From an uncultured Candidatus Saccharibacteria bacterium (GTDB lineage: Bacteria; Patescibacteriota; UBA1384; 2-12-FULL-50-11; DASWYB01): DNA of 64,000 nt. The first letter of the stretch is position 1; each line of letters starts with the position of its first letter. A program made the translations under genes and the position numbers. Location of the stretch: contig CAYJRF010000003.1 of assembly GCA_964372935.1 (NCBI GenBank), positions 3,903-67,902 of the forward strand, written 5' to 3'. Shown here piece after piece: positions 21,740-51,628 of this stretch. The notes beneath the pieces are model-generated. The model searched no databases. It saw only the letters and a program-made list of their open reading frames with translations, and had not been told where the DNA came from.

Positions 21740-21741
21740 AG

Positions 21742-22971
21742 TTAGTCCTTTCCAAAAAGGAGATCTGTACTCTCGATAAATTCCGCTTTTTGCCGAGATC
21801 GCGCTAATTTGGCCGCCTTGGTCATATACTCTGGATCAAATTCAGCATCAAAATGAATTTCGTAACGACCGGACGGCATAGATAGCCCCGCCAAAATACG
21901 TCTGGCGACGTAGGCAACCGTAGCCCCCGAAAGAGTAGCCGCCGTGCCCAACTGCGGCCAAGTAGGCAACTTTGTCCCAACTTGGGTCAAGGAAAGTTGC
22001 ATTCTGGGCACGACATCGGGGCCAACAATACGATTAGCTAATTTAACTTTCTCGGCCATTGTTGGGTTAGACGGCAAGTTGCGAAGACGATCTTCCGATA
22101 CTCGGCCATGAAACAGGAGCCGTTCGGGTTCAAGGTCAAATCGTTCAACGTCAATAATAGTGTTGTCGCCATTATCGGTTGCCATCACAACCGGGATTCT
22201 CAAAGCTCGAGCCATGAAACGCGACTCAATCTTTAATTTAATGTTGTCCATCTCTTCGATGAAGAGTTGGAGTTTTTCCCCCTTGCCTTCGCCCGAGACA
22301 AAAAATTTTTTCATGTTCGCCTCGGTCAATCCCTCGCTAAAAACCTCGAGTTCTTGGTAAGGATTCATTTCATAAACTCGACGCGCCGTCATGATTGATT
22401 TTTTTTGTGCTAAATCTGTCACTGAAGCCGAAAGTCGATTAAGGTTGGTAATCGATAACGTGTCCAAATCAGCGATACGCATTTTGCCGCCACCACCCGT
22501 GAGGATAAGCCCATTAACCACTGACGAACCAACACTTAATCCAGCTATGCCGATGCGGGACTGATAAAATTTTTCTTGCTCTTCCAATGTGATGAGAAAT
22601 TTATTGCGAGCTGTCCGTAGCTTAAAATAATCGCTTGGATCCGGGAGGTGGACCAGAGTCCAACGCCAAGGGAAATACACCCACAATCCAACCGTATCGA
22701 ACTCTCGTTCGCCAATGTAACGGTTCTTATAACGCGTTAAAGTCTGTTTGTACTCGGGACTGCCGGGAGCAACAAAAGGAAAGTCAATTTTAAACAAATC
22801 CTCGATAGCCTCGGCAAGGGAGTCAACGATTTCGTAAACTTCGTGATTTTTTCGCAGCTCAGAGACCCGCCTTCGGTCGGGTTCTTGGTCTAGGTCAAGG
22901 ATTTCCGGTTGCCATTTAGTTTCGCTTAACTTTGGATCAACACCGCTGTCCATGTTTAGCGTCTTATCCAT
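21742..22971 (-). CDS. E1-like ThiF/MoeB-family adenylyltransferase with an N-terminal extension of about 115 aa
   Basis: 409 aa; core from about residue 115: ...EEQEKFYQSRIGIAGLSVGSSVVNGLILTGGGGKMRIADLDTLSITNLNRL... and ...VMATDNGDNT...; extension of unknown fold. Confidence 0.72.
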   Translation of the reverse strand: MDKTLNMDSGVDPKLSETKWQPEILDLDQEPDRRRVSELRKNHEVYEIVDSLAEAIEDLFKIDFPFVAPGSPEYKQTLTRYKNRYIGEREFDTVGLWVYFPWRWTLVHLPDPSDYFKLRTARNKFLITLEEQEKFYQSRIGIAGLSVGSSVVNGLILTGGGGKMRIADLDTLSITNLNRLSASVTDLAQKKSIMTARRVYEMNPYQELEVFSEGLTEANMKKFFVSGEGKGEKLQLFIEEMDNIKLKIESRFMARALRIPVVMATDNGDNTIIDVERFDLEPERLLFHGRVSEDRLRNLPSNPTMAEKVKLANRIVGPDVVPRMQLSLTQVGTKLPTWPQLGTAATLSGATVAYVARRILAGLSMPSGRYEIHFDAEFDPEYMTKAAKLARSRQKAEFIESTDLLFGKD

Positions 22972-24455
22972 TTGTGTTTAATTTTAATTTCAAAATCCTC
23001 ATTACCAAACTCCATAAAGTGAATTATCGGATCCGCTCTTTCCTTAATTTCTTGGTATAGCCGATTATATTCGCTATTCTGGTCTTTTAAGTTACTAATA
23101 ATCGACTTTAGAATTCGATTTTTTATGCCCGCCAATGGAGAAACGTCTTTTTTTAACTCAATATACAGATGCAAGCTTTGCTCTTGAGTATGTTCGTCGT
23201 AGAGCGTCTTAACGATAAATTTTCCGGTGACAAAAGCGTCTGTCTTTGACTTTTCTATGCCTCTTTTGATGTTTTCGGGAAAAATATCCAAAGCGTAGAA
23301 AGTTGTTGAGACATCCATCCGATAGTACAGAGCCAAATGAGGCTGCTGGGCATAAACGAGCAGTGGCTTAGGTAATCGGCCACGCCAAGGAGAGATTAAA
23401 TCATTAAGTTCAACTGGGTTAATGACTCTGCCTCGATCTAAAATTTGATACCGGATAAGAGGCAGGGAATTATTAGCCGTAAAAATTAGGTCCTCACCGG
23501 CTTGCTCAAAATAGCGTAGCTCGGGGCGATAATGAACGAACGTCGGCAAAACTGTAGTGCCGGGGAAAAGGCTATAGAAAAGTTTCCGGTCGCGGTCCGC
23601 GATTCGACGCAACAGAATGGAAAGTGGATTTTCATGGCCAAGCAAACCAGCGTCTGCCGTGCCATAGATGCTATACAACGTTTTTTCTGGATGTCTACCT
23701 TTAATGTGTTTGATAACATAGTCACGCCAGGCCTCCGAAATAGATTCCCCAGCTACAACTATCTTAAGGTTTAGTAAATCGAAGCGAACCCGTTCTTCGA
23801 CCCCACTATCAATAACGTCCTTAACGAAGGGTGGATAGCCCATGAGTACAATCTGATCAAAGAACGGAGCAAGTACCTTAAAGATGTTGACAATCGCCGC
23901 TTTATCAATGCCTGGCGTAATCGCAACCAAACGATGTCCCTGATCGGCTAGTCCTTGTATCGCGCCGAGGGTGTAGGTTCCACCAATCCAAGTCCCCATG
24001 GCGAAAGCGATAATCACCAAGGTTTCTCTATCTTTGGTGGCGAAGCCCTGTAAAAAAATGTCCTCGTGAAGTTTTATTGACTCTGCCAGGCTTTGATTGC
24101 CACGAGGCCACAAATGCGATTGCCCGCTCGAACCAGAACTCATAGAAACAATGCGGACGCTTTCGGTACATCCGTCCCACAACATATCATCAAGAGGATA
24201 TTGTTTTAAATAATTTTCTTTCGTTACTGCTGGTAATAATCGGAAGTCTTCTGGGCTCTTAATATTTTCTGAGTTAACGCGATGCCGTTTAAGAAAATCT
24301 TTATAGGCGGGGACACGTTGAGCGGCTTCTTGAAAAGTTTTTAGGGCGTTATTGAACCCAGGCAAATCAACTGACTTCCTAGCTTCGAGCTTATTTGATT
24401 CCCTAGATTTAATCATTTTTGAACCTAAAATGAGGCGTGAAACCCCCAACAACAT
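22956..24455 (-). CDS. adenylate-forming enzyme of the PaaK / F390-synthetase / CapK family
   Basis: 499 aa; AMP-binding-like SSGSSGQSH and C-terminal ...GEDLIFTANNSLPLIRYQILDRGRV... matching the PaaK-family C-terminus; an internal Met giving a start at 24416 is equally plausible. Confidence 0.68.
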   Translation of the reverse strand: MLLGVSRLILGSKMIKSRESNKLEARKSVDLPGFNNALKTFQEAAQRVPAYKDFLKRHRVNSENIKSPEDFRLLPAVTKENYLKQYPLDDMLWDGCTESVRIVSMSSGSSGQSHLWPRGNQSLAESIKLHEDIFLQGFATKDRETLVIIAFAMGTWIGGTYTLGAIQGLADQGHRLVAITPGIDKAAIVNIFKVLAPFFDQIVLMGYPPFVKDVIDSGVEERVRFDLLNLKIVVAGESISEAWRDYVIKHIKGRHPEKTLYSIYGTADAGLLGHENPLSILLRRIADRDRKLFYSLFPGTTVLPTFVHYRPELRYFEQAGEDLIFTANNSLPLIRYQILDRGRVINPVELNDLISPWRGRLPKPLLVYAQQPHLALYYRMDVSTTFYALDIFPENIKRGIEKSKTDAFVTGKFIVKTLYDEHTQEQSLHLYIELKKDVSPLAGIKNRILKSIISNLKDQNSEYNRLYQEIKERADPIIHFMEFGNEDFEIKIKHKWIRR

Positions 24456-32918: not shown

Positions 32919-33920
32919 CTATTGTTTGTTTTTTAAATTTTCTCCGCTTGCTTCGGCGTCCACTTCGTAATTTGTATTTTGCTGTTCAAAAAAATTTACC
33001 AGTTCAAACACATCAGTGGCGGCACCCATCCATTTCGCTGGGTTGGTTACATTATAGTGTTTTGGCAATCCAAGTTCTCCTAGTCGGCGATCAGCGACAT
33101 ACTGTACGTATTGGTTTACATAATCCACGTTGAGGCCGAGTATTCCTGTCGGAAAAAGATCTTTGTTATAAGCCACTTCTTTATCGACACCCTCAATAAC
33201 AATAGCGCCTATCTCATTGGCAAAATCTTTGGTAAGAAGTTCCGAATTTTCTTCCAACGCCGTATGAATAAGATGGATGCCAAATTTAAGGTGCAAACTC
33301 TCGTCTCGCAGCACCCAATTTATCATCGAGCCGAAGTTGCGCAACTGGTTTCTTTGCCTGAACGATAGGGCGACCATAAAGCCACTGTAGAACCATAAAC
33401 CCTCCATAACAATATTTGTCGCGACAAGATTACGGATGAAATCTTTTTTCCCCTCAACTGATTCAATATCCAAGGCCTTATCAGTCATGCGCTTTAAATA
33501 CTTCACGACATAATCCTCTTTCGCACTCATTGACGGAGTTTCTAAATGCAAATTGAATATTTTATTCCGATCAAATGAAAATGTTTGCAGGACATATTCA
33601 AATGCGACACAGTGATTTGCCTCTTCAAACATCTGTTTCGCAAGGTAGAGATGACATTCAGGAGATTTGAGATACGGGTATATGCCAAGAGCGATTGATC
33701 GGTTGACAATCAGCTCAGCCGGATTAAAAAAAGCCATGAGAAACTTGACCGCATGGCGTTCGTCCTCGGTCATATTTTTCCAGTCCTCAAGGTCTTCCTT
33801 TAGAGCTATCTCGTGCGGAAACCAAGTGTTGCGCACGGCTTGATTATAAAGATCGTACGCCCAAGCGTAGTGTATTGGGTGTAAGTTCATGTCTTCCGGT
33901 GAGGCTTTTCCGAGGATCAT
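32919..33920 (-). CDS. nrdB: ribonucleoside-diphosphate reductase beta subunit (class Ia R2)
   Basis: 333 aa; di-iron/tyrosyl radical motifs (EEANHCVAFEY, MEGLWFYSGF); AT-rich gene. Confidence 0.9.
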   Translation of the reverse strand: MILGKASPEDMNLHPIHYAWAYDLYNQAVRNTWFPHEIALKEDLEDWKNMTEDERHAVKFLMAFFNPAELIVNRSIALGIYPYLKSPECHLYLAKQMFEEANHCVAFEYVLQTFSFDRNKIFNLHLETPSMSAKEDYVVKYLKRMTDKALDIESVEGKKDFIRNLVATNIVMEGLWFYSGFMVALSFRQRNQLRNFGSMINWVLRDESLHLKFGIHLIHTALEENSELLTKDFANEIGAIVIEGVDKEVAYNKDLFPTGILGLNVDYVNQYVQYVADRRLGELGLPKHYNVTNPAKWMGAATDVFELVNFFEQQNTNYEVDAEASGENLKNKQ

Positions 33921-33955
33921 AGTTTTTTGAATTATTTATTTGATAATTACTGGTA

Positions 33956-36418
33956 TCACTGGCAACTGTCGCATGCTAATCTTTCTTGCGGATCAATTGG
34001 ACAAACTTTTTCGATAGGAACTTGCAGTGTAACTTCCTCTGTTTGCTCGAATGCTTTTGCGAATCCGACCTTGCCCAGTTTCTCTGATTTGTTGACCGCA
34101 ACTGTACTCTGCTCAGCGGTGTGCCGGGGCTTCATGTGGAGATAGTATGTTGTTTTGACACCTTTTCTCCATGTCGAAGCATAAATATCCATTGCTTCGT
34201 CCACGTCTCTTGTTGCAAGATACATATTTCTTGAAAGAGCTTGATCAACCCACTTTTGGGCTCGCGCCGCAACTTCAACGTATGCAAGTGGCGGAATCGT
34301 AAAGGATGTTTTATACACGTCTCGGATATGTTGAGGTATATCAGAGATCGATGAGATATCTCCTTGAAGTTCAATAATCTTGTCTCGGACTCGTTCCCAC
34401 AAGTTGAGATTTTTGAGTTCGGTAACAAGATTGTGGTTAATATCAAGGTACTTACCTGAAATCTTGTTGCGTGAGAATACTTGGGCGAATCTCGGATCAA
34501 TTCCCGGTGTCGTGCCAGCAACCAGTCCAATGTTTGCGTTCGGTGCAACAGCAAGGAGAGTGGCGTTTCTCATTCCTTTTTTTACTTTTGCGCGCAGAGC
34601 ATCCCAGCCAAGCCCTTTGTGCTTACTTTTCTTATCAAGATCAAGCGTCATACCCCTGTCTTTTTCAAGCTCTTCAATCGTATCAATAGGCACTTTGCCC
34701 TTAGACCATCCCGAACCCTTGAAATGCTTGTAACTTCTGCGTTCCGTTGCTAGATTAGCGCTTTCATCAATTGCGATGAAACTTACGAATTCAAAAATTC
34801 CATCGGCAAAATCATTCGCGTGAGGACTGTCGTAAGGAATACCAAGCTGTTCAATCGTATCGGAAAAACCCATTACACCGAGACCAATAGCCCTGTTTTC
34901 TTTGTCTGACTTCACCGCCTCGGGGACAGGCAGTTCATTGATGTCAATAAGATTGTCGAGCTGGCGCACCGCGTAGCGCACGCTTTTTTCAAGTTTCTGC
35001 CAATCTACCTGCTTTTTTTTGAGGTGCGCGGCAAGGTTGATTGACGCGAGATTACATACGGCAATATTGTCCTTGTCTTGTGGTAAACATATTTCGGTGC
35101 AAAGATTCGACATGTGGATTGTGCCAGTGTTGCTATGAAGGGTACGCAGATTGATCGGGTCTTTCCACGTAAGCCATGGATGGGACGTTGTTTGGAGCGA
35201 AACGAGAATCTGTCTATATTGTTCTCTCGCCGGGACTTTATTGAATACTCTTATTTTTCCGGTCTCGGCCTTATCAATATATTCGGCATATCTTTTTGAA
35301 AATACTTTGCCGTAGAGTTCGTTAAGGTCTGGCGTTTCTTTTGGATCGAACATATACCAATCACCGCCATTTTCTACTCGCTTCATAAATTCGTCCGATA
35401 AAAATACGGCGGTGTTTGCTGTTCTCATGCGAAGGTAGTCATCGCCCGCGTTGTGTTTCCAATCAAGAAATTCCGGAAAGTCGATGTGCCAATTTTCCAT
35501 GTAGAAGCAGAGTGCGCCCTTCTTCTTCCCGCCCCGTTGAATGGCGCGAATGGCGGTATCAATAATTTTGGCAAAAGGAGTCGGCCCGCTTGATGTCGTG
35601 TTATCTGAAGAGAGAGGCGAGCCAGTAGCGCGCAGTTTGGTGATGGACGCCCCAATACCGCCGGATGCTTTGGAAAGTTTCATGACATCCGTAATTGATT
35701 TTGCGATATGATTTATATCATCGTGAATCTCAAGGAGAAAACAGTTAGAAAGAGCGGGTCGAGGTGTTCCCGCATGAATATTGGTTGACCCGCCGGCGAT
35801 GTATTCATGGCGCGACATTTTGTCGTAAAAACGGATTGCCCATTCCGTTGGATCTTTCTCATTGTATGAAAGCCCCATTGCAACGCGCATAAAAAAATAT
35901 TGAGGCACTTCAGCAGGGTTTTGGTTTTTATCCTTGATAGTGTAGCGATTAAGGAGAGTTGAAAGACCCGCGTAAACAAACAGTTCGTCCCGATTAATAT
36001 CAAGCGCGCCCGCAAGGCAAGAGAGATCAAACACTTTCTCCATACGAGCGTCGAGAATACCGTCTTTCACTCCATTTTTAACATAACGAACAAATCCTTC
36101 GTGATGAAGTTCTATTAATTCATTGGCGTTTTCATAATCGCCAACGACTCGTTTATAGATAGTTTTGAGTAAAATTCGTGTTGCGATTTTGTCGTATTCA
36201 GGATCATCTTTTATATTCTGTACTGCCGCATTTATTGTCGCTAAATCGAGCTCTTCCGTAGTGATACCATCGTACAAAATTATCTGCGTATCCGTTCCCA
36301 CTTGAGTGACTTTACTTATCGGATCGCTTAATCCCATGCTTGCCCGCTCAATGGATCGGTTGATTCGATCTGCGTTAAAAGGTTCTTTGGAGCCGTCTCG
36401 TTTTGTTATGTTGATCAT
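33956..36418 (-). CDS. nrdA: ribonucleoside-diphosphate reductase alpha subunit (class I, with ATP-cone)
   Basis: ORF is open to 36463 (TTG), but the Met at 36418 (MINITKRDGSKEPF, ATP-cone start) follows a GAGG SD; catalytic region includes NLCTEI and C-terminal CxxC; AT-rich. Confidence 0.9.
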   Translation of the reverse strand: MINITKRDGSKEPFNADRINRSIERASMGLSDPISKVTQVGTDTQIILYDGITTEELDLATINAAVQNIKDDPEYDKIATRILLKTIYKRVVGDYENANELIELHHEGFVRYVKNGVKDGILDARMEKVFDLSCLAGALDINRDELFVYAGLSTLLNRYTIKDKNQNPAEVPQYFFMRVAMGLSYNEKDPTEWAIRFYDKMSRHEYIAGGSTNIHAGTPRPALSNCFLLEIHDDINHIAKSITDVMKLSKASGGIGASITKLRATGSPLSSDNTTSSGPTPFAKIIDTAIRAIQRGGKKKGALCFYMENWHIDFPEFLDWKHNAGDDYLRMRTANTAVFLSDEFMKRVENGGDWYMFDPKETPDLNELYGKVFSKRYAEYIDKAETGKIRVFNKVPAREQYRQILVSLQTTSHPWLTWKDPINLRTLHSNTGTIHMSNLCTEICLPQDKDNIAVCNLASINLAAHLKKKQVDWQKLEKSVRYAVRQLDNLIDINELPVPEAVKSDKENRAIGLGVMGFSDTIEQLGIPYDSPHANDFADGIFEFVSFIAIDESANLATERRSYKHFKGSGWSKGKVPIDTIEELEKDRGMTLDLDKKSKHKGLGWDALRAKVKKGMRNATLLAVAPNANIGLVAGTTPGIDPRFAQVFSRNKISGKYLDINHNLVTELKNLNLWERVRDKIIELQGDISSISDIPQHIRDVYKTSFTIPPLAYVEVAARAQKWVDQALSRNMYLATRDVDEAMDIYASTWRKGVKTTYYLHMKPRHTAEQSTVAVNKSEKLGKVGFAKAFEQTEEVTLQVPIEKVCPIDPQERLACDSCQ

Positions 36419-36442
36419 GTTGTGCCTCACTTGATTAATAAA

Positions 36443-36466
36443 AACACTTGCACTACGCGCCAAGTG
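36443..36466. promoter_or_regulatory. palindrome ACACTTG-n10-CAAGTGT in the nrdA 5' leader, just upstream of the SD
   Basis: Read directly; ACAC...GTGT ends recall NrdR-box half-sites but spacing differs from the 16-bp consensus. Confidence 0.3.
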
Positions 36467-36814
36467 TTCTCATATTCCTTCACAGCTTAAGTGAGGCGAC
36501 TTGACGCGAGCCAGAGAAGGTGCCCGAGGGCACTAATATGAGGGGTCGGACTTATCCGCTTGATTAGCGAAATTACCGTTACGCGATAGCGAGGGAATTA
36601 CACCCTGCTTCACCTCATATCTTCTTTTTTTAAGTTGTACAGTATCAATATAGCACAAATAAATTATTTCCAATATTTTAGTGTAAAAATCAAAAGAGCA
36701 AGAAACTTTTTTGGGGTGGTGCCGAGCGAGGCGGTGGCGTGGCGATGGTTCGTGCATGGTACAAAAAAACAGTCCCATTCAACCAATTGGTTAAATGGTG
36801 TCGTAAGGATCAAT

Positions 36815-37297: not shown

Positions 37298-39508
37298 CTA
37301 CCAGCGCGCCTTGCGTTTGGGACGACGCCCACCTCGGCCACCGGGGCGGCGGCCGCGAGGCGGACTGGCGGGTTTTGACTCTGCCGGGGCTACCGATTTT
37401 GACGGTTCGGGCGTCGCCTTGGACGATGCTGCCGGCCCGCTACCCCCAGATCCGTTCTTATCCCCTCCTCTAGCGTCGCCCTGATACCAAGAGTAGGCCG
37501 CCAAACCGGTGCCGGCCAAGATCAGAAAAACGGCGATGGCAATAATCACCTTGGACCGATCCGGCACGGCGCCGGCTTCATCCGATGGCGTTGGGCTGGC
37601 TTGAAGATTCTCTTGAGAGTCGGGGATGCCGTTACCGTTTTTGTCCTCCTCCGGGCTAAGAGTACTGCCGCCGCCGTCTTTTTCGCCCGTTACCGCCATG
37701 GCTTGCGCCAAGATAAGCCGCTCCTTTTGGGCGGTTGGCATTTCGCGAGCGACGCTGGCCAAGACGATTGCTCGGGTCATGCCCCGCAGAGTGGTAATGC
37801 CGCTTTGGTTGCACGCGCCGTCAATCGCCGCGACGGCAAACTCGTATTCCACGCCGTTTGACACTTTAATATCGTGGCGACGGCCAGACGTGATGACCTC
37901 ACTCCACGGTTCGGTCCCGACTTGTCGCCAGCGCAAACGGTACTCGCTGGCGTCGCCAACCGCGTCCCAGTGAGGGGTGATCACGCCGCCGCTCGATTTC
38001 AACTGGAGATTTGGGGCGGCCGGAGCGAAGATGTCGTTGTCGATTGCGATAGTTTCGGTGTTGCCGGTGATGTCTTTCGCCACAAGATAAAGGCGGGAAA
38101 AACGGTTATCGCCGATAAATATCTCGTCGGTTCGGCCGTTGGTCGCCGGGGCGATTGCCACCAGATCGGTCAGGCTAAGCCCGGGATCGCGGTAAATAAA
38201 CACTTGGACCACGTCGGCGACGGCCGAGAGCGTGAACGAGTCTTGGTTCGGCGAGCACCGGCTGGTTACTGTGGCGGTTATCGGGCCGATTTTGGTGTCG
38301 ACGGTAAAACTCTGCTGGGCGATGGTGATTCCGTCCGCCAAAAGAGTAACCGTGACAGTGCCGTCTTGGGGACTGTTAGCTTTGACAACCGAAAACGGCG
38401 TCGCCGTTGTCCAGGTAACGCCGTCGGCCGCCAGGACCAAGGGAATAGTTTCGGCCGGCGTTGCTGGCCGTTCAAAAACCAGCGCCAGGTCGTAACCATT
38501 CAGGGCGTCGGCCGGCGTGGTGGTGACACTGGCGTTAACCGCGCCGATCCCAAAATTGGTGGCAACATCTTGGTCCTTAAAGACCATCGTCACCCCGATA
38601 GTGCCAAAAATAGTCGTCGGGGCTTTAGGAACGGCGGTTCGAGTAACGGTTTGGCTGACGCCGGACTCGTTTTTGGCCGTTAGTTTGACAGTGTAGCTCA
38701 CGCCATTAACCAAACCGGCGCTAAATGGCTGGCTGTAGCTGGCCGATCCAGCCAGAATATCGCTGACGGCGGTAACAACGCTGTCCGGGCTGGTGGTGTG
38801 GAGACTTAAATCGTAGGCGGTGGCGGCGGCGGCGGCTATCCACTCCGCCGTAATGGTCTTGTCGCCGGCGGTCAAGGTTAAAGCGGGGTCGGACGGCCGA
38901 CGGCGGGTGGGAGTGGGCGAGGCCGTAACGCTAAAATCGGCGGCGTTATTGTTGGTGTCGGTATGTAAGGCCGAACGAGTTAAGCTTTCTCCGGCCAGCA
39001 GTCCCCCGCCGACGTTCACGGCGCCGGTGGCGTCCGGCTCGCCCGCCGGAGCGACGTCGCCTGTCTTGACGTAGCCGACGGTATCAATTACCGCGCTGGC
39101 GGCGTCACGCAAGATTACGGCGTTGTTGCTGTTGACGAGCGAAATGGTGGCGACGACATCGCCGGGCACGGCCCCGGTGTAGCCGGAACCGACGACCAGA
39201 TAGTAGTCGCGGCTAAGAATGACGGTTCCGTCGGGAAAGGTGATGATATTATTAGTCGTTCCACCGCTCGTCAGCCGCTCCAATTTCCACCCGGCCAAAG
39301 CCACGCTGTCCGGCCCGGGATTGTACAGCTCGATAAATTCGTCGCTGATGGTGGCGCCTCGGGCTTGAATCTCGTTGAGAACTACCCCTGTGCCGCTGGT
39401 GTCGGCAAGAACTTTTGGCGGCGCGACCGCCCCTAATGGCGCTACCACCAAACAAAACAGACTGACACAGGCCAAAAACCGTCTCAAACTAGGCCGCAGA
39501 TCAACCAT
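37298..39508 (-). CDS. large surface protein: signal peptide, lamin-tail domain, FN3-like repeats, C-terminal TM anchor and Arg/Lys-rich tail
   Basis: 736 aa; LTD signature VVLNEIQARGATISDEFIELYNPGPDSVALAGWKL; FN3-like segments; C-terminus ...IAIAVFLILAGTGLAAYSWY...RGRRPGGRGGRRPKRKARW. Confidence 0.68.
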   Translation of the reverse strand: MVDLRPSLRRFLACVSLFCLVVAPLGAVAPPKVLADTSGTGVVLNEIQARGATISDEFIELYNPGPDSVALAGWKLERLTSGGTTNNIITFPDGTVILSRDYYLVVGSGYTGAVPGDVVATISLVNSNNAVILRDAASAVIDTVGYVKTGDVAPAGEPDATGAVNVGGGLLAGESLTRSALHTDTNNNAADFSVTASPTPTRRRPSDPALTLTAGDKTITAEWIAAAAATAYDLSLHTTSPDSVVTAVSDILAGSASYSQPFSAGLVNGVSYTVKLTAKNESGVSQTVTRTAVPKAPTTIFGTIGVTMVFKDQDVATNFGIGAVNASVTTTPADALNGYDLALVFERPATPAETIPLVLAADGVTWTTATPFSVVKANSPQDGTVTVTLLADGITIAQQSFTVDTKIGPITATVTSRCSPNQDSFTLSAVADVVQVFIYRDPGLSLTDLVAIAPATNGRTDEIFIGDNRFSRLYLVAKDITGNTETIAIDNDIFAPAAPNLQLKSSGGVITPHWDAVGDASEYRLRWRQVGTEPWSEVITSGRRHDIKVSNGVEYEFAVAAIDGACNQSGITTLRGMTRAIVLASVAREMPTAQKERLILAQAMAVTGEKDGGGSTLSPEEDKNGNGIPDSQENLQASPTPSDEAGAVPDRSKVIIAIAVFLILAGTGLAAYSWYQGDARGGDKNGSGGSGPAASSKATPEPSKSVAPAESKPASPPRGRRPGGRGGRRPKRKARW

Positions 39509-39839
39509 AACAGACCTCCAGAGTTTACTATTGATTCAGTTTTGCTTGACTTTACGCGTCGACTGCGGCCAAGTTGCGTTCTGGCCTCGCCGGTCCCTCC
39601 TATAAAAACCAAGGCGACGGCGGCGGTTGATGCCGCCAGCCGTATCTTCACGAAAAACTGTTACCATAGCCCTGGGGTGCGACGCTTCCTTCAAGTCGTA
39701 CCCGAACAAGCCATAGTGCTAACCAGAACCTAGCAAACACCGCGTAGGGTTGTCAAGAGACGCGGCGGCGGCAAAGTATCGTCCACTAGAACAATGAAGC
39801 CCTGGCAAGGCTTGAGAAGTTACTCCCCAGGTTTAATTT

Positions 39840-39915
39840 TGGTGGGCGCACATGGATTCGAACCATGGACCGGGCGGATATAAGCCGCCTGCTCTGCCAT
39901 CTGAGCTATGCGCCC
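39840..39915 (-). tRNA. tRNA-Ile with UAU anticodon (tentative)
   Basis: Reverse complement gggcgcatagctcagatggcagagcaggcggcttatatccgcccggtccatggttcgaatccatgtgcgcccacca folds canonically; anticodon stem ggcgg/ccgcc, loop cttatat (U33, UAU, A37); body resembles Ile2-type tRNAs. Confidence 0.72.
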
Positions 39916-40137
39916 GTGTCGCGGCTTACTTCGTCGCGGCAAGAGAATGGATTAAAGCGCTCCCACTATAACAAAAACGGGGGTCGAGCTCAATTGACTG
40001 GCCACGGCGCGGGACGGGTAGCGCGCCACTGATCCAAGATGGGTTAAGAGAGCCCCGGCGATATTTTTCCGTGGCCACCGCCGATCTGGCCGAGTTTTGC
40101 ACCTTCAGCTTGGCGCCAAGCTGGATTTTTCTCGGGT

Positions 40138-41355
40138 ATGGCGAGAGATAGTCGCCTGCCGTCTCGTTTTTTACCCGTGGCGAAACAGTGGACGACAATG
40201 TGCTACAATGGCGGCAGTTACCCGATGAACGAAAACCGCGAACTCGCCTTACCGAGTGACGAACCCCCAACGAACACGCGCCGGCCGGAAACCGTCGAGC
40301 GTCCCGACGGTGTTAGTTTGGAGTTTTGGGCGAAGTTGGGACGATTTCCGCTCGATATCCAAGAGGCTGTGGCCAGCCTTTCGCCCCCAATTCGCGCTCA
40401 AATTTTTGGCCGACCCGAGGCCAAGTCCCTGTCAACCAATTCGACCGCCGAAATAAGTCGGATCCTGCAATCTGTGGAAGCCGACAGAATCTACCTCCGC
40501 CACGAATATGAGTCTATATGGGAAGAAACCGAGATTGATTCCCTTGACAGAGTGGATCGTGAGACGGTGACACGAAACACCCTTGGTCGTTTTTTACGAG
40601 ACGTCAATATCCGAGACTCCGTGACGGATAACCCCGCCGCCGTGGGAGACATCATGGATTCGCTCTGGAGAAATCGCGGCAAAAAAGGCCCTGATGTCGA
40701 GCCGTACCGACGGGAGCACTTTGACAATCTTCGACGCGAGTTGGATGTCCTGCAAGCCGAAAAACAAGCCATCATTGACGAACTTAATAAGTTGGGAGCG
40801 AAAAAGAGCCTGAATCGTCGAGAGAGTCACCGTCAGGACGAGCTCGGTTCTATCCTCGCCCTAAATTATGACAATGTTTGGTACGCCAGCGCCGTGCGAG
40901 GTAAAGGAAATCCTTATTCCACTCCCGAAAAACAAAGACATATAAACGAACTAACGTCTGGGATACAATCGGGCGAGAAAGAGTTGGGTCGGCAAAGGAC
41001 GCTTGCCTTCGTTCTCCCGTACATGGATGCAACTGACTGTGCTGTCACCGTTATGGAGACCGTTTGTCGGGAATTGTATCGATTCCAGCGCCGAGACTCG
41101 GCGCTGATTCGAAAGATCGCTGCGCAGGTTGACGAATGGTACGAGCGCCACCAATACGACCCAGCTTTGAAGCAAGCACTTCAAAAAGACGCCTCGCGGG
41201 AGGTACGACAACAAAAGCTGGCCGAACATTTTTGGCGCTTATTTAAATCTTACGATCGATTGACTGAAGAACCGAACACCGAGCCGAGTCGGCTCGAAAA
41301 TACCGCTCGCGAAATAATAGTGGTGCTTCATTTACTGGACCCGCCAAGCCGATAA
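40138..41355 (+). CDS. hypothetical protein (405 aa), no recognisable domain
   Basis: Long ORF in host-like GC; Asp/Glu/Arg-rich predicted helical protein; the first gene after tRNA-Ile(UAU). Confidence 0.45.
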   Translation: MARDSRLPSRFLPVAKQWTTMCYNGGSYPMNENRELALPSDEPPTNTRRPETVERPDGVSLEFWAKLGRFPLDIQEAVASLSPPIRAQIFGRPEAKSLSTNSTAEISRILQSVEADRIYLRHEYESIWEETEIDSLDRVDRETVTRNTLGRFLRDVNIRDSVTDNPAAVGDIMDSLWRNRGKKGPDVEPYRREHFDNLRRELDVLQAEKQAIIDELNKLGAKKSLNRRESHRQDELGSILALNYDNVWYASAVRGKGNPYSTPEKQRHINELTSGIQSGEKELGRQRTLAFVLPYMDATDCAVTVMETVCRELYRFQRRDSALIRKIAAQVDEWYERHQYDPALKQALQKDASREVRQQKLAEHFWRLFKSYDRLTEEPNTEPSRLENTAREIIVVLHLLDPPSR

Positions 41356-41435
41356 CTCGCCGTTTTTGCTCGTAGGCGGCGTAAAAGAAAATTGACGCAC
41401 CGGCGCCTGTAAATCCTCGAGGGGATTTTTAGTTG

Positions 41436-41476
41436 CAGTGGGGGAGCGGCAAAAAGTATTTTTTCGGTTGTGAACA
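41436..41476 (+). repeat. 41-bp direct repeat, copy 1 (cagtgggggagcggcaaaaagtattttttcggttgtgaaca)
   Basis: Identical to 43710-43750; contains a -35-like TTGTGA, followed 20 nt later by an extended -10 TGCTAGAAT. Confidence 0.8.
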
Positions 41477-42141
41477 GTTGTGTAATCAATACTTTTGTGC
41501 TAGAATATCATTACCGTTTGTCTTGGCCAAGAAGGGGGGGCGATGTGGCCGCGACGACAGGTCTATCGCGTCTGGTCGGCGCGTGGCTGCGGAAGCGGCT
41601 ACTCGTGCCCGACAATTTGCCCGATCAGGGCATCTCGGTGCTGGCGGTGGTGGTTGTCCCGTTCGGGCTCCACCACGGCACGCTGGGACCGAAAACGGCG
41701 GCAGTGGTTGAGCGAGCGGTTGAACTGTGCCGCCAGTACCACGCCGTTAACGTCATCGCCATGGGAGGTTGGCAGTCAGTCGGCCAACGCGAAGGGCCGC
41801 TGATCGCCGCGGCGCTTAAAGGGCAAGTCCCCGACTCAACGAGCGTCGTGGTCGAGGACGCGACCCGAAACACCTTTGAGCAAGCCCGATATTTGCGCAA
41901 TATTGTGCCGACACTCAATGGTTGTCCGAGCGTCGCGATCATCGTCGTGGCCGACGAGCTGCACGCGCAACGCGTGGCTCTGCTGGCGACAAGACACCTC
42001 CGCGGTCTGGCAAAGGTACACCGCGCCAGCACCCGCGCCAACGATTGGGAAAACGACAAGTTGGCCCTGACTAACCCGATTATCTTTGGCTTCCGGGAAC
42101 TGGTGTTGCTTGTTATCTCCCGCCTCATCTGGTGTCTTTAA
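41470..42141 (+). CDS. DUF218 / YdcF(SanA/ElyC)-family protein
   Basis: ORF from 41470, but the likely start is GTG at 41545 after AAGGGGGGG SD; DUF218-like segment ...VNVIAMGGWQSVGQREGPLIAAAL...VVEDATRNTFEQARYLRN... Confidence 0.65.
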   Translation: MNSCVINTFVLEYHYRLSWPRRGGDVAATTGLSRLVGAWLRKRLLVPDNLPDQGISVLAVVVVPFGLHHGTLGPKTAAVVERAVELCRQYHAVNVIAMGGWQSVGQREGPLIAAALKGQVPDSTSVVVEDATRNTFEQARYLRNIVPTLNGCPSVAIIVVADELHAQRVALLATRHLRGLAKVHRASTRANDWENDKLALTNPIIFGFRELVLLVISRLIWCL

Positions 42142-42186
42142 ATCCTCCGCGGCCGACAGCGCGCCCGGAGGATTTTTCTTTTGGGG
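42141..42186 (+). terminator. intrinsic terminator after DUF218 gene
   Basis: 9-bp stem aatcctccg/cggaggatt followed by tttcttttgg. Confidence 0.6.
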
Positions 42187-42418
42187 CCGATACTTTTCCG
42201 TGGCCACCGCCGCGTCAATGAGCTACAACCACGCCAGCCCGACAATTCAAACTGGATGTGTGCGTTTTCTTAGGTGATCCGTTACGTTCCATTGTCTTTG
42301 ACATTATTACTAACATAAGCCTTCTTTATGCCAAACTAACCGCAGGCGAGTTTAGTAGGGAAAACTCCCCCAACATTTTCCACGCCGCTCTGTCGATCGG
42401 TTAGCCTTACCTACTTAT

Positions 42419-43363
42419 CTAAAATGAATGCGTAAAAGTGGCAAAGCTTTGGATATCTCGTTCTGGTGTGACTTGAATAAAGACCGCACCTGGAAGTTTG
42501 CGTTTCTTAAGGAGTTGAAATTTGCCTCCAATCCGAGCTTCAAGACTAATGGTGCCGTCTTTACGCGAGCACGCTTTCGAACCTCCCAAGTCGGCAAAGA
42601 AATGTTTCCACTCTAAGCGAAGTCGAAGCTTCCAAATAAATCGGCCATCATCCCAGCTAAAAGCATCGGTTAAGCCGATTCTAAAGTCTTGCTCATTTTG
42701 CGCCTTGCCCTCAATGTTTCCGCTTTCATCTTCCGGTATCTGCTCTAATTGTTCTTGTAAAAATAATTGATTCTCGCTGAAATGTTGTTGACTAAGTTGA
42801 GATTGGACATAAGTTTGAGCCAGAGACGTCGCTAATGTTCCAACGACACGGGCAGGATTGTTACTATTTACAAGGGCGGCACGCAGGCTGGGTTCAAGCA
42901 CACTATTATCTATAGTGTGAACACTGGAGTCCATAACAAAAAGATGGGCTTGGCCTTTGAGCGCGCTGTCGAGAGCTTGGTGGAGTAAATCGTTAAGTTT
43001 CTTATTTGGGCAGACCAGGGATGTAGGAGTGGGAGAGGATGTAGGAATGGGACTTGAGCAGTATATCGGTCCTGCCGTTCCAATTTCCAGCGATTTATTA
43101 ACTGAACTTTGATTATAGTTTTGCGAGGGAGGGACGTAGAAGTTTGTAGAGATCGCCGACGGTGAGAGCACGGGCGTTGGGGAATAGGTGTAAGTCGGTA
43201 AAGGAGAAGGAATCAAAGTCGGTGTTTCGGTGGGGCTTGGGGTCAATATAGGGGTGGGAATAATGCAACCAGGAGAAGTTACAAGGCTATCGGCAGTAAT
43301 TTGCAGGTAAGAAATAAACGTTGCGCCAGCAAGACCAAGCGCCAAGAAAATTGCTAATAGCAA
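42419..43363 (-). CDS. secreted/anchored hypothetical protein with Pro/Thr/Ser-rich N-terminal region (AT-rich gene)
   Basis: 314 aa; N-terminal hydrophobic signal MLLAIFLALGLAGATFI, PTPILTPSPTETPTLIPSPLPTYTYSPTPV linker; about 37% GC on sampled lines. Confidence 0.5.
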   Translation of the reverse strand: MLLAIFLALGLAGATFISYLQITADSLVTSPGCIIPTPILTPSPTETPTLIPSPLPTYTYSPTPVLSPSAISTNFYVPPSQNYNQSSVNKSLEIGTAGPIYCSSPIPTSSPTPTSLVCPNKKLNDLLHQALDSALKGQAHLFVMDSSVHTIDNSVLEPSLRAALVNSNNPARVVGTLATSLAQTYVQSQLSQQHFSENQLFLQEQLEQIPEDESGNIEGKAQNEQDFRIGLTDAFSWDDGRFIWKLRLRLEWKHFFADLGGSKACSRKDGTISLEARIGGKFQLLKKRKLPGAVFIQVTPERDIQSFATFTHSF

Positions 43364-43709
43364 TCTGTGAGTACGGACAAATTTAGTTAAGCGGGAGACA
43401 ATTCCCTCCTATCGTTATTCAATGATACACTACACAGAACTCACGTCTAGTTGCTGTATGCGTCAGATTTTTGCCACGATGGCCTCCTTTGACGGCTTGG
43501 TCAACATCGGTCCTAGTGTTATGACTCGCTTGTCCACGCGATGGTGGTGCCCAAATCGCCGCTAGCATTGCCTCAAAAGCGGGGCTTAAGACAACCTGTG
43601 CGTCGCCGGCGCCATGCTTCACAACGTGGGCCTTGTCCATAAAAGTCATCTAGGCAAGAAATTTATCGGCCGGCTCGTCTCCTGTCGCCCGACGGAAATT
43701 TTTTGACGA

Positions 43710-43750
43710 CAGTGGGGGAGCGGCAAAAAGTATTTTTTCGGTTGTGAACA
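43710..43750 (+). repeat. 41-bp direct repeat, copy 2
   Basis: Exact copy of 41436-41476; followed by GC hairpin cgcccg-ccct-cgggcg. Confidence 0.8.
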
Positions 43751-43853
43751 TTCGCCCGCCCTCGGGCGGCTACTCCCCAAGACGGCGGTAGCGGGAATCA
43801 GTCTTAGTTTGCTCCAGCGACCGCGGCCGCGCGATAGGGGAGTGGGAATATCG

Positions 43854-44096
43854 TCAGTCGATTAGTCGCAAAATATATTCTATTTGCTCTTTGGTCAGTC
43901 TGACGCCATCCCCTTCTTGTTCATAGCGTAAAAATAGCCCGACGTACTCCCGCCGAGCCCGCGCTAAGGCCGCCGACACGGCCATGAGTTGCTGCATCGT
44001 GGGAACTAAGCCGCGCTCGCTTTCGATCATCCGCGCCACGCCGCGCACTTGGCCTTCGATTCGGCGCATTTGGGCCAACAATTTTTCTTTGTCCAT
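43854..44096 (-). CDS. CsoR/RcnR/FrmR-family (DUF156) small transcriptional repressor lacking any Cys or His
   Basis: 80 aa; family-typical RIEGQVRGVARMIE and helical bundle length; no Cys/His for canonical metal or formaldehyde sensing. Confidence 0.65.
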   Translation of the reverse strand: MDKEKLLAQMRRIEGQVRGVARMIESERGLVPTMQQLMAVSAALARARREYVGLFLRYEQEGDGVRLTKEQIEYILRLID

Positions 44097-44256
44097 ACGG
44101 TTCCTCCAATATGATAAAAAACTCGCTGATTATCCCCAGCCATACCCCCGCGCTATCCCCCTCATACCCCCGCCCCGTATTATAGTAGGGAGGAAAACTT
44201 TTAACCAGCACACCAAAAAAGAGGCCCTCGCCTCTCTTCGGGGCGATTACTGCCGT

Positions 44257-44859
44257 CTAAACAATCGTCTGGGCGGTTTGGGAGACGACGTCCCAAGCCA
44301 GATTAGCGAAAAACGCCTCGATGTAATCGCCGCGCGCCGGACCAAAATCGGCAAAGTAGGCGTGCTCATAAACGTCCAGAGCCACCAGGACCGTGGCGTT
44401 CCATATTGGATAGGTGTTTTGAGCGTCGCCGAGATAATTAAACAACTTTTGGCTGTCGTGATCGTAGGCCAGCCAGGCCCAGCCACGAGCGGCCATGCCG
44501 GTGGCTTTGAGATCGGCCTTCCAGGCGTCGAACGAACCAAAATCTCGGGCGATCAGCTCGGCCAATTTTCCCGTGGCCGACCCGCCCGAACCGCCCAAAT
44601 GGCCAAAGTAGATCTCGTGATTTTTAACGCCGCCCACGGCAAAGCTCAATTCCAACTTTAAGGACCTGATGTCGCTGTAAGTCTGATTGGCGCTGGCGGG
44701 ATCACGGCTAACCGAGGTTAGTTTTTCGAGTATCTCGTTGGCTTTTTTTACGTAGCCCTGATAGAGCTTGTAATGGTTTTGCATCGTCGCCTTTGAGATG
44801 CCTTGAAGCTCTTTATCAACGCTGGTAAATTTTTTTTCGGCGTACATGCGACCTCCCAA
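44257..44859 (-). CDS. sod: Fe/Mn-family superoxide dismutase
   Basis: 200 aa; C-terminal domain ...WAWLAYD...DVYEHAYF... matches the Fe/Mn SOD signature D-x-W-E-H-A-Y-Y region; N-terminal helical domain divergent. Confidence 0.75.
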   Translation of the reverse strand: MGGRMYAEKKFTSVDKELQGISKATMQNHYKLYQGYVKKANEILEKLTSVSRDPASANQTYSDIRSLKLELSFAVGGVKNHEIYFGHLGGSGGSATGKLAELIARDFGSFDAWKADLKATGMAARGWAWLAYDHDSQKLFNYLGDAQNTYPIWNATVLVALDVYEHAYFADFGPARGDYIEAFFANLAWDVVSQTAQTIV

Positions 44860-51187: not shown

Positions 51188-51628
51188 CTATCCTAGCACA
51201 TCGAGCTTATTAAGGCGACGGGTGTGCCTTGACTCGCCGGCAAACGGCGTGGCCAGCCAAACCCGCACAAAAATTTCGTTCTCGGCAAGAGTGGCGACTT
51301 CTTGGCCAAGACAAAGGATATTGGCGTTATTGTGTCGCCGGCTCCGCTCGGCCATGAACTCGCTCGTCACGAGAGCGGCGCGAATTCCCAAGTAGCGGTT
51401 GGCGGCGATACTCATCCCGATCCCGGTGTCGCACATTAAAATCCCCAGCGCGCGATCGTTCAAAACGCCGCGACAAACTCGTTCGGCATAGTCCGGATAA
51501 TCATCCCCCGCCAGATAGCCGGCCGGGCCACAGTCGACGACATCGCAAGTTTCGGCCAAAATCTGCCCCAGGCGCTCTTTGAGGGCAAAGGCGGCGTGGT
51601 CGGCCCCTAGATAGATACGCTGACGCAT
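51188..51628 (-). CDS. rpiB: ribose-5-phosphate isomerase B
   Basis: ORF open to 51742, but the RpiB core starts at the internal Met (MRQRIYLGADHAAF...); CDTGIGMSIAANR motif. Confidence 0.8.
   Translation of the reverse strand: MRQRIYLGADHAAFALKERLGQILAETCDVVDCGPAGYLAGDDYPDYAERVCRGVLNDRALGILMCDTGIGMSIAANRYLGIRAALVTSEFMAERSRRHNNANILCLGQEVATLAENEIFVRVWLATPFAGESRHTRRLNKLDVLG

Follow-up and report, generated by a model that had tools for sequence, protein, structure and literature searches.

Several described systems combine short repeated borders with variable genes, and each resembles the locus reported here only in part; a literature search returned general background only. In the naturally transformable Neisseria, replacement islands, or 'minimal mobile elements', hold variable cassettes between conserved genes, and these cassettes are swapped by homologous recombination. 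The present locus shares with them a hotspot with lineage-specific, unrelated content and no mobility genes, in a genome that encodes ComEC and recombination proteins; this differs from the Neisseria situation, however, in that two alternative cassettes stand in tandem, separated by short duplicated borders, and in that the arrangement is known from one haplotype. As in a Campbell-type merodiploid (L-A-R-vector-L-B-R), two short direct homologies alternate around two inserts and a middle segment, and recombination between the repeats could reduce the structure to one or the other allele, although the homologies here measure 41 and 25 bp instead of the hundreds of bp used in the laboratory, the 'vector' is a host-like DUF218 gene without replication or mobility function, and the circular partner is unobserved.

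The remaining systems are also comparable in some respects. As in tRNA islands with attL/attR, direct repeats bracket lineage-specific, partly low-GC genes beside a tRNA, but neither repeat stems from the tRNA, the insertion sits on its 5' side, no integrase is present, the size is only 2.3–3.9 kb, and a second repeat pair is interleaved with the first. Integron attC cassettes likewise carry promoter-poor, unrelated small cargo in series between recurring short sequences; here, in contrast, there is no intI, no attC imperfect palindrome and no R'/R'' core, two distinct sequences alternate, and the cargo genes are oppositely directed. Unlike REP or MITE sequences, the 41-nt repeat has no palindrome, hairpin or terminal inverted repeats; its copy number refers to the 64 kb, in which two copies lie (up to three mismatches). 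Unlike non-autonomous elements of the IS200/IS605 type, the end hairpins differ between the units, the outside sequences are not shared, and no transposase is encoded in the window.

The window, a 64,000-nucleotide stretch of a CPR (Patescibacteria) chromosome, contains the features collected in Table 1. The 41-mer CAGTGGGGGAGCGGCAAAAAGTATTTTTTCGGTTGTGAACA (R2) occurs in two copies, R2a and R2b, identical at 41 of 41 positions on the plus strand and located exactly where a sequence-only reading of this DNA had placed them. No match was found in 100 shuffles, in agreement with a chance expectation of zero, and no third copy with up to three mismatches is present on either strand of the window. 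A search for a dispersed repeat, proposed genome-wide in that reading and run here on the 64 kb, likewise yielded just these two copies, and GTDB representatives, JGI metagenomes and IMG/VR contain no exact match to the core of R2; as copies were counted in 64 kb of the genome, more may exist. A second direct repeat pair of 25 nt (R1), identical at 24 positions, had been overlooked; pattern search of the 64 kb returned its two copies against none expected, and a search of IMG/VR gave no match. R1 and R2 are the two longest dispersed exact repeats of the 64 kb, and both lie within 3.7 kb.

Table 1. Features of the tRNA-Ile–csoR interval and its borders (positions in the window)
Feature	Position	Strand	Basis
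tRNA-Ile, anticodon TAT; conserved backbone, left islet edge	39840..39915	-	ARAGORN; Rfam tRNA 66 bits
tRNA-Ile sigma-70-like promoter, TTGAGC-17-TATAGT with TG	39993-39965		promoter scan
R1a, outer copy, CGATATTTTTCCGTGGCCACCGCCG; left islet border	40059..40083	+	repeat search, pattern search
Cargo A, 405-aa ORF, GC3 55%	40138..41355	+	
Terminator-like hairpin and T-run ending cargo A, directly before R2a	41411..41430	+	sequence, fold
R2a, inner copy of the 41-nt repeat	41436..41476	+	pattern and repeat search, Logan contig ends
Probable DUF218 promoter: TTGTGT, 17-nt spacer, TGcTAGAAT extended -10	41478..41506	+	read from sequence
DUF218-domain gene, GTG start, 198 aa; 'V' segment between inner repeats	41545..42141	+	Pfam PF02698, E 1.6e-12
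Strong terminator hairpin after DUF218 gene	42140-42175		fold
R1b, inner copy, CGATACTTTTCCGTGGCCACCGCCG; one T/C difference from R1a	42188..42212	+	
Cargo B gene 1, 314-aa ORFan	42419..43363	-	ORF list
Cargo B gene 2, candidate 76-aa ORF, weak ribosome-binding site	43419..43649	-	ORF list, called in Logan assemblies
Terminator-like hairpin and T-run directly before R2b	43682..43704	+	terminator scan
R2b, outer 41-nt copy; right islet border, 103 nt from csoR stop codon	43710..43750	+	
CsoR/RcnR-family metal-sensing repressor gene; conserved, right islet edge	43854..44096	-	Pfam PF02583, E 5e-15
Fe/Mn SOD gene, upstream of csoR	44257-44847		Pfam SOD domains

The two pairs are interleaved in the order tRNA-Ile, R1, 405-aa gene, R2, DUF218, R1, 314-aa and 76-aa genes, R2, csoR-sod. 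Around unrelated cargo, R1 and R2 keep the same order and the same orientation; the inner copies flank DUF218, and the outer copies, R1a (66 nt past the tRNA-Ile promoter) and R2b, abut the conserved backbone. The direct repeats alternate in an L-A-R-V-L-B-R scheme whose outer copies run on into the backbone. The edges of R2 are sharp: the sequence to its right differs between copies (GTTGTG and TTCGCC), as does the sequence to the left of R1 (CCCCGG and GGGGC), and the similarity of all four repeat-core flanks is at chance level (p 0.11–0.48), indicating that the edges are junction-like and not the remains of decayed long duplications. Extended homology decaying inward from the cores, as at element ends, is ruled out by the same four flanks, and the partial similarity claimed for the 20 nt upstream of R2 dissolves into 9 of 30 positions in register, with a local-alignment p of 0.48. 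Two further candidates were rejected: an inverted R1-like third copy at 39762-39781 is not significant, since unrelated sites reach its score of 24 as well, and a kinship between R2 and the reverse complement of R1 through a common GGC-A-run-GTAT gave an alignment score of 17, which is noise.

Chaining of two strain alleles via the short repeats, that is, an assembly artefact, is conceivable in a metagenome contig, and k=31 graphs cannot order paths through a 41-mer. Nevertheless, Logan k=31 contigs of runs ERR4904390, ERR4904391 and ERR3478686 match the window at 99.9–100%. In all Logan runs carrying the locus, R2 breaks the assembly, and the contigs stop precisely 30 nt inside each copy, the pattern that a repeat of 41 nt should give: at R2a, L084 and L092 run to 41465 and L003 begins at 41447; at R2b, L001 and L002 run to 43721, and L003 and L086 to 43739. 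An additional branch of the graph at 39756-39785 is present in ERR4904390 and absent from ERR3478686. R1, in contrast, is shorter than k, and each of its copies is spanned with unique flanks by single contigs (L084/L092 and L003, respectively), which establishes that tRNA-R1a-405aa-R2 and R2-DUF218-R1b-314aa-76aa-R2 are each real. The same breaks recur in runs of two studies, whose independent assemblies confirm every unique junction. Standard assemblers work with reads and k-mers longer than 41 nt; the 41-mer being shorter than these, the published path needed spanning reads, and an artefact is extremely unlikely. As a practical warning, such short exact repeats fragment k=31 assemblies and can hide circular or deleted variants.

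The conserved context was compared with the loci of three relatives (L087, L088 and L089), the SOD of which is 71–74% identical. All three keep the order ATR-SOD-CsoR-tRNA-Ile-LTD-DivIC, with tRNA-Ile(TAT) in the same CsoR-LTD interval, but the distance from csoR to tRNA-Ile is 46 nt in L088 and 225 nt in L089 vs 3,938 nt in the window, and in L087 the interval holds different genes and an inverted tRNA. Homologs of the four islet genes are absent from these loci, and the only dispersed exact repeats in the relatives' 20-kb loci are tRNA-derived matches. A PduO adenosyltransferase probe for close relatives in GTDB was uninformative, with a best match of 43% identity. The sequence-only reading had pointed to a tRNA-Ile 1.5 kb from the repeat, which is the minus-strand tRNA-Ile(TAT) of Table 1, and had suggested comparing the locus in related genomes; the bracketed segment is indeed missing at the syntenic site next to tRNA-Ile in the three relatives. 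Since all four genes are absent there, the whole 3.9 kb is lineage-specific, and not just the bracketed 2.3 kb; since the relatives also lack the 405-aa gene, which lies outside the bracket, the boundaries of the inserted DNA are not set by the 41-mer pair. The differing interval content of the relatives marks the site as a hotspot with lineage-specific content.

These data bear on the att-like ends contemplated in the earlier reading; on this view, a 2,274-bp R2-DUF218-R1-314aa-76aa element would be excised and integrated at the 41-bp core by a recombinase encoded elsewhere. Such an element would account for perfect 41-bp direct repeats around a segment that is missing in relatives and lies near a tRNA, and the R2 node of the k=31 graphs, with two entries and two exits, equally fits a chromosome plus a free circle; moreover, degenerate copies of the tRNA-Ile 3' end in L088 indicate past integrase activity at this tRNA within the lineage. 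On the other hand, no integrase, recombinase or transposase is encoded in the segment or among the ORFs of at least 180 aa in the window (the four islet genes were scanned with Pfam, PHROG and NCBIfam, the other ORFs with Pfam). Sensitive blastn of 39500-44300 against the window revealed no similarity of R1 or R2 to tRNA-Ile, the extra DNA lies on the 5', promoter side of the tRNA, and a dyad-symmetric core typical of recombinase sites is absent from R2, as read from its sequence. Within the segment, a host-like gene stands beside genes of low GC content, and the interleaved R1 pair, together with the lineage-specific 405-aa gene outside the bracket, would be left unexplained. The att-like reading is thus quite unlikely.

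The composition and content of the islet genes are heterogeneous. The DUF218 gene, which had been correctly recognized in the bracketed segment, has a backbone-like GC content of 62% and a GC3 of 73%, vs a GC3 of 41–47% for the 314-aa and 76-aa genes and of 41–55% for the cargo genes overall. The GC content of the 314-aa gene, given earlier as 37%, is 45.7% (GC3 41%), and the composition of the bracketed 2.3 kb is mixed. The DUF218 protein is identical to a 198-aa database protein (P0001); a word-index homology search gave self matches only, and exact look-ups in assemblies had no record of it. The 314-aa protein, which has a hydrophobic helix at its N terminus and a linker rich in Pro, Thr and Ser, gave self matches only in a word-index search of 5.8 billion proteins and no match in Pfam, PHROG or NCBIfam, and its single-sequence AF2 model (pLDDT 35) is unusable; the 76-aa ORF, uncertain as a gene, has no homologs. 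The 405-aa protein, the database copies of which have 385 aa and start from M21 at 40198, belongs to a small all-alpha family (36 relatives by phmmer, five of them below 1e-30) and has no Pfam domain. Its AF2 model (pLDDT 82) found no match in the PDB (best E 0.2, generic helical bundles only) and contains no recombinase-like fold. For locus finding, the family alignment A4 was too diverse, and the narrower A5 returned only two short loci, none in viral contigs. The islet had no match in plasmid and phage collections.

Two units with the same ends and orientation, unrelated cargo and sharp outer edges, both in a hotspot, might also represent a new non-autonomous gene cassette with R1 as left end and R2 as right end (40059-41476 and 42188-43750), moved by a trans-acting recombinase or by heterospecific-site exchange. 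The absence of a third end copy from the 64 kb, GTDB representatives, JGI metagenomes and IMG/VR makes this improbable, as does the lack of a recombinase, terminal inverted repeats, target-site duplications and conserved end hairpins at the units, the hairpins near the unit ends differing in sequence between the two; furthermore, homologs of the 405-aa protein elsewhere occupy ordinary chromosomal contexts. The more specific proposal that R1 and R2 are heterospecific sites of a hitherto undescribed CPR cassette-exchange system, with units swapped or stacked at the tRNA-adjacent slot by a recombinase encoded elsewhere, in the manner of recombinase-mediated cassette exchange or of an integron whose integrase is not local, is very improbable, even though such a site-specific system would, if real, be the sole reading amounting to a significant discovery.

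The position of R2 relative to the genes may also reflect a function in cis. Both copies lie 60–70 nt upstream of start codons (DUF218 on the plus strand, the 76-aa ORF on the minus strand) and follow a hairpin plus T-run, which leaves room for a cis-acting role: R2 could be an operator, UP-like or insulator site co-regulating DUF218 and the divergent 76-aa/314-aa unit, with R1 as a second such site. In particular, 68 nt separate the end of R2a from the DUF218 start codon, and the -35 of that gene lies right beside this copy; R2b begins 60 nt upstream of the 76-aa ORF, which is encoded on the opposite strand; and R2 carries A5-GTA-T6, a kind of tract characteristic of bent or UP-like DNA. However, 41/41 identity with sharp edges far exceeds the need of a binding site and implies recent copying, the two R2 copies face their respective genes in opposite orientations, R1 cannot be promoter-associated in both copies, since R1b lies downstream of a convergent gene pair, and the R2 sequence occurs in no other intergenic region of the 64 kb. 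The region upstream of csoR contains its own repeated motif, GGGGGTAT, which differs from R2 and is missing from it, ruling out R2 as a CsoR/RcnR operator via its G-tract. A cis-regulatory role is, in summary, unlikely.

A promoter within R2 is ruled out on either strand, no internal -35/-10 pair having workable spacing. We infer the DUF218 promoter of Table 1, which scores below the threshold of the consensus promoter scan, from its elements: the -35 that is correctly spaced from the extended -10 TGCTAGAAT, TTGTGT at 41478-41483, lies immediately beyond R2a, and the TTGTGA inside R2 is 27 nt from the -10. The -35 thought to lie inside the first copy and to feed TGCTAGAAT is therefore placed outside the repeat, and a duplicated promoter is likewise not supported, as R2b has no usable -10 on either strand. 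R2b does lie in a 200-nt gap without a plus-strand gene; the earlier reading, having noted no such gene downstream of it, had raised the possibility of a small RNA. Such an RNA, or another RNA element, would be encoded by R2 or begin there. In an Rfam search at E<=1 the tRNA was the only match, the predicted folding of R2 on either strand does not surpass that of shuffled sequences (z 0.16 and 0.27), and folding revealed no structure common to both R2 contexts. R2b has no promoter, and the plus-strand terminator lies upstream, not downstream, of each copy; that at 43682-43704 has no plus-strand gene upstream, and a GC hairpin (43754-43770) follows R2b. An RNA element is thus extremely improbable.

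The 41-mer is most likely a recombination scar and not an integrase attachment site, promoter or RNA gene. The explanation that we favor, to which we give about an even chance, is that R1 and R2 are scars bordering a variable slot in which a second allele was added beside the resident one, with deletions of 2.27 or 2.13 kb still possible. The slot would lie between tRNA-Ile(TAT) and csoR-sod, with R1 and R2 as its short conserved borders, and a second allele (R1-B-R2) would have joined the resident allele (R1-A-R2) without replacing it, giving L-A-R-V-L-B-R. The DNA may have entered when a circular R2-DUF218-R1-B molecule recombined by one crossover inside the 41 identical bp, in the Campbell-type, merodiploid-like manner, or when DNA acquired by uptake from a sister strain was integrated additively, on the basis of one-sided homology. 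Identical R2 copies and R1 copies one base apart are as expected of a crossover that fell in R2 and of R1 copies contributed by two alleles, and the presence of ComEC together with RecG, RuvA, MutS and MutL makes uptake and recombination available. The repeats would have no sequence-specific function of their own; being direct, they could still mediate RecA-dependent deletion: a deletion through R2 would remove 2,274 bp and retain the 405-aa allele, and one through R1 would remove 2,129 bp and retain the 314-aa allele.

Some observations count against allele addition. At 41 and 25 bp, the homologies are close to, or short of, the length that efficient RecA-dependent recombination requires, and the model explains neither the origin of the DUF218 segment nor the exact fit of a complete gene of host-like composition between the inner copies. 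Protein look-ups for single-allele forms retrieved this haplotype only and, as no genome with R1-A-R2 or R1-B-R2 alone was found, we infer the slot and its alleles from one haplotype.

If allele addition is correct, an ultra-small, competence-equipped CPR genome would stack orphan genes at a tRNA-adjacent hotspot without mobile-element machinery, and the 41-bp and 25-bp direct repeats would provide a built-in route to lose them again. The locus would then be useful for understanding gene turnover in Patescibacteria, yet it would establish no new principle.

The 41-nt direct repeat R2 (CAGTGGGGGAGCGGCAAAAAGTATTTTTTCGGTTGTGAACA) is present in two exact copies, as the sequence-only reading had stated, with no further copy at up to three mismatches on either strand of the 64-kb window and no match in dinucleotide-preserving shuffles (0/100); the feature is real and statistically unambiguous. 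R2 is not confined to one assembly: Logan k=31 contigs from the runs ERR4904390, ERR4904391 and ERR3478686 cover the region at 99.9-100% identity, and they break exactly 30 nt inside each copy, as expected of a 41-nt repeat in a k=31 graph. An assembly artefact is scarcely credible, given that these breaks are reproducible across studies and that each copy of a second repeat, R1, is spanned together with its unique flanks by single contigs.

R1, which had escaped the earlier reading, is a 25-nt direct repeat with 24/25 identical positions. No dispersed exact repeats in the 64 kb are longer than R2 and R1, if a coding tandem repeat at 25.7 kb is disregarded, and all four copies fall inside one 3.7-kb stretch; three relatives have nothing of the kind in their 20-kb loci, tRNA-derived matches aside. 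Both repeats are sharply bounded, with no similarity above chance on the four flanks (p 0.11-0.48), and the partial similarity described for the 20 nt upstream of R2 is no greater than chance would give (9/30 in register, p = 0.48). Neither a third, inverted R1-like copy nor an inverted-repeat relationship between R1 and R2 was upheld by a window-wide scan. The resulting order is R1-A-R2-V-R1-B-R2, where V is the DUF218 gene, whose domain was confirmed, and A (the 405-aa gene) and B (the 314-aa and 76-aa genes) are unrelated cargo. Two units with the same ends and different cargo could also mean that R1 and R2 are the ends of new cassettes or heterospecific recombination sites, but no third copy exists anywhere searchable, and this reading is quite improbable.

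Features of the islet and its surroundings, and Logan contigs matching the region (window positions)
Feature	Position	Strand	Remark
tRNA-Ile	39840-39915	-	own promoter at 39993-39965
R1a	40059-40083	+	
405-aa gene	40138-41355	+	
Hairpin plus T-run	41411-41430	+	
R2a	41436-41476	+	
Probable DUF218 promoter	41478-41506	+	
DUF218	41545-42141	+	
Strong terminator	42140-42175	+	
R1b	42188-42212	+	
314-aa gene	42419-43363	-	
76-aa ORF	43419-43649	-	
Hairpin plus T-run	43682-43704	+	
R2b	43710-43750	+	
GC hairpin	43754-43770	not assigned	
csoR-like gene	43854-44096	-	sod further right
L085	36597-39785		ERR4904390
L084	39756-41465		ERR4904390
L003	41447-43739		ERR4904390
L001	43721-54096		ERR4904390
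L086	42293-43739		ERR4904391
L093	36598-37888		ERR4904391
L092	36598-41465		ERR3478686
L002	43721-51093		ERR3478686

Several other readings of the repeats were weighed. A duplicated promoter is not tenable, as R2 has no usable hexamer pair and nothing lies on the plus strand downstream of the second copy; the -35-like element thought to feed TGCTAGAAT from within the first copy is instead a correctly spaced TTGTGT (41478-41483) just beyond R2a. A small RNA, also suggested earlier, is highly improbable, with no Rfam match at E<=1 and an unstructured R2 (fold z = 0.16 and 0.27, no fold common to the two contexts). Nor do the searches point to a dispersed repeat family, as far as they reach: the 64 kb holds two copies, and GTDB representatives, JGI metagenomes and IMG/VR gave none. 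Each R2 copy is 60-70 nt upstream of a start codon, as a cis-regulatory site might be, but the orientation of the copies relative to the genes is inconsistent, R1b is located downstream of the genes next to it, and a binding site would not require as much as 41/41 identity, which makes such a site unlikely. R2 was rejected as a CsoR operator since the csoR promoter region carries its own repeats: at 44120-44185 (minus strand), directly after a TATAAT box, GGGGGTAT / GGGGGATA recurs 3-4 times and is probably the operator of a CsoR/RcnR-family repressor. The leader of the 405-aa gene, for which database calls begin at 40198, contains a strong 9-bp hairpin with a TTTTT tail (40104-40130, plus strand), which lies past R1a and resembles a terminator or attenuator. 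The DUF218 5' leader (41517-41534) has an 18-nt exact inverted match, TTTGTCTTGGCCAAGAAG, in the RpiB coding region (51298-51315; blastn E 0.007), containing the palindrome CTTGGCCAAG; this may be chance.

The window is part of an 84-kb metagenome contig at NCBI. Its SOD has its named relatives chiefly in Patescibacteria/CPR (Saccharimonadales, Doudnabacteria, Berkelbacteria), with some in Armatimonadota, and GTDB representatives include no close relative. Three relatives' contigs (L087, L088 and L089), with SODs 71-74% identical to that of the window, share with it the backbone MutL-RpiB-LDcluster4-Rpe-Tkt(N)-Tkt(C)-FBA-(2-HADH)-ATR-SOD-CsoR-gap-LTD-DivIC. The gap holds tRNA-Ile(TAT) alone in L088 and L089 (46 nt and 225 nt past csoR, respectively) and two unrelated genes plus an inverted tRNA-Ile in L087; in the window, where the nearby tRNA-Ile(TAT) was confirmed, it lies 3,938 nt from csoR. 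The csoR-LTD interval is a hotspot whose content differs from lineage to lineage. Homologs of the four islet genes are all absent from the L087, L088 and L089 loci, and therefore the lineage-specific DNA is the entire R1a-to-R2b block; the proposal of an inserted segment holds as to its absence from relatives, but not as to its extent, which exceeds the 2.3 kb between the 41-mers. A tRNA-Ile with UAU anticodon is kept in 4/4 genomes (L087 11918-11992, L088 12285-12360, L089 11218-11292), while in most bacteria AUA is read by a lysidine-modified CAU tRNA and a genomic UAU tRNA-Ile is uncommon. Downstream of this tRNA in L088 (12400-12530) are T-arm-like fragments, among them an inverted T-arm copy and a degenerate copy of the tRNA-Ile 3' end (TTTGATTCCCTGTGCG, 88%); they look like scars that old integrase-type events left on the opposite flank of the tRNA. 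In L087 (11240-12696) the inverted tRNA-Ile lies between genes for 179-aa and 220-aa proteins; the latter has a paralog (28% identity, E 1e-15), a 232-aa protein abutting a tRNA-Met (16173-16871). Both paralogs have a helix-turn-helix-like N-terminus, and they may represent a tRNA-associated mobile gene family.

Within the islet, GC3 is backbone-like for DUF218 (73%) and not for the 405-aa (55%), 314-aa (41%) and 76-aa (47%) genes; overall GC of the 314-aa gene is 45.7%, not 37% as first reported. The protein encoded by the 314-aa gene is an orphan that has a hydrophobic helix at its N-terminus and a linker rich in Pro and Thr. A small all-alpha family, with members of about 370 aa (36 phmmer matches) that occur elsewhere in ordinary CPR-like chromosomal surroundings, includes the 405-aa protein; the family (P0126-P0160) has no Pfam model and conserves the motifs LWxNRGK, KKxLNR, TLAxxLEYxDAxDF and HFWRLFxSY. 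Structure search with the confident model of the 405-aa protein (pLDDT 82) returned no solved fold, and thus no hidden recombinase or Rep. The window encodes ComEC, RecG, RuvA, MutS and MutL, and no integrase, transposase or recombinase among its ORFs of at least 180 aa; no known plasmid or phage resembles the islet. The k=31 graph is also compatible with a chromosome plus a 2,274-bp circle, and thus with an excisable element having R2 as att core and a trans-acting recombinase, but the missing integrase, the mixed composition and the R1 pair, left unexplained, make this distinctly unlikely; nor are R1 and R2 tRNA-derived by sequence comparison, contrary to the idea of att-like ends near a tRNA.

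Other irregularities were noted in the window. At 39756-39785, just upstream of the LTD promoter -35 (TTGACA, reverse complement of 39752-39757), L085 and L084 break with a 30-nt overlap and L092 runs through unbroken, and therefore ERR4904390 contains a third path here, where the hotspot begins on the left; this path would be a structural variant or else a repeat. Contigs of all three runs (L085, L092, L093) end at 36597/36598 (36598-36627), between the ribonucleotide reductase (RNR) genes and DivIC, which implies either that a repeat has another copy beyond the window or that the population is heterogeneous at the border of the low-GC RNR block. This class I block (32919-36463; small subunit 32919-33920, large subunit 33956-36463; about 44-45% GC) lies between a tRNA-Met pair and DivIC; in L089, DivIC is directly followed by two tRNA-Met genes and FtsH, so the block looks like a second tRNA-adjacent insertion. 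A further low-GC cluster (19617-24455, about 45%), adjoining a 7TM-GAF histidine kinase and encoding ThiF-like and weakly nitroreductase-like proteins, a weak methyltransferase match and a 499-aa protein without domain, may be a horizontally acquired small peptide- or cofactor-modification cluster.

The explanation that we favour, at an even chance, is that R1 and R2 are border sequences of a variable slot, left after a second allele was added. The outer copies, R1a and R2b, are continuous with the conserved backbone, and the inner ones would be a 41-nt right border (R) and a 25-nt left border (L) stranded either side of DUF218. Adding a second slot allele beside the first would give exactly the L-A-R-V-L-B-R layout. 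This might occur if a circular R2-DUF218-R1-B molecule entered through one crossover within the 41-bp identity, or by one-sided-homology additive integration of sister-strain DNA anchored in csoR-sod. The R1 copies differ by a single T/C and the R2 copies are identical, which fits a crossover in R2 and R1 copies from two alleles. No single-allele haplotype was found; we infer the allele-addition history, entry by competence and the capacity for deletion. The repeats would be scars, their only latent function being deletion as direct repeats (2,274 bp or 2,129 bp), each event giving back one allele, and their meaning is most likely historical, not functional. They would record how a CPR genome built up a small islet of orphan genes at a hotspot next to a tRNA; the locus is a fresh example of an already known kind of structure.
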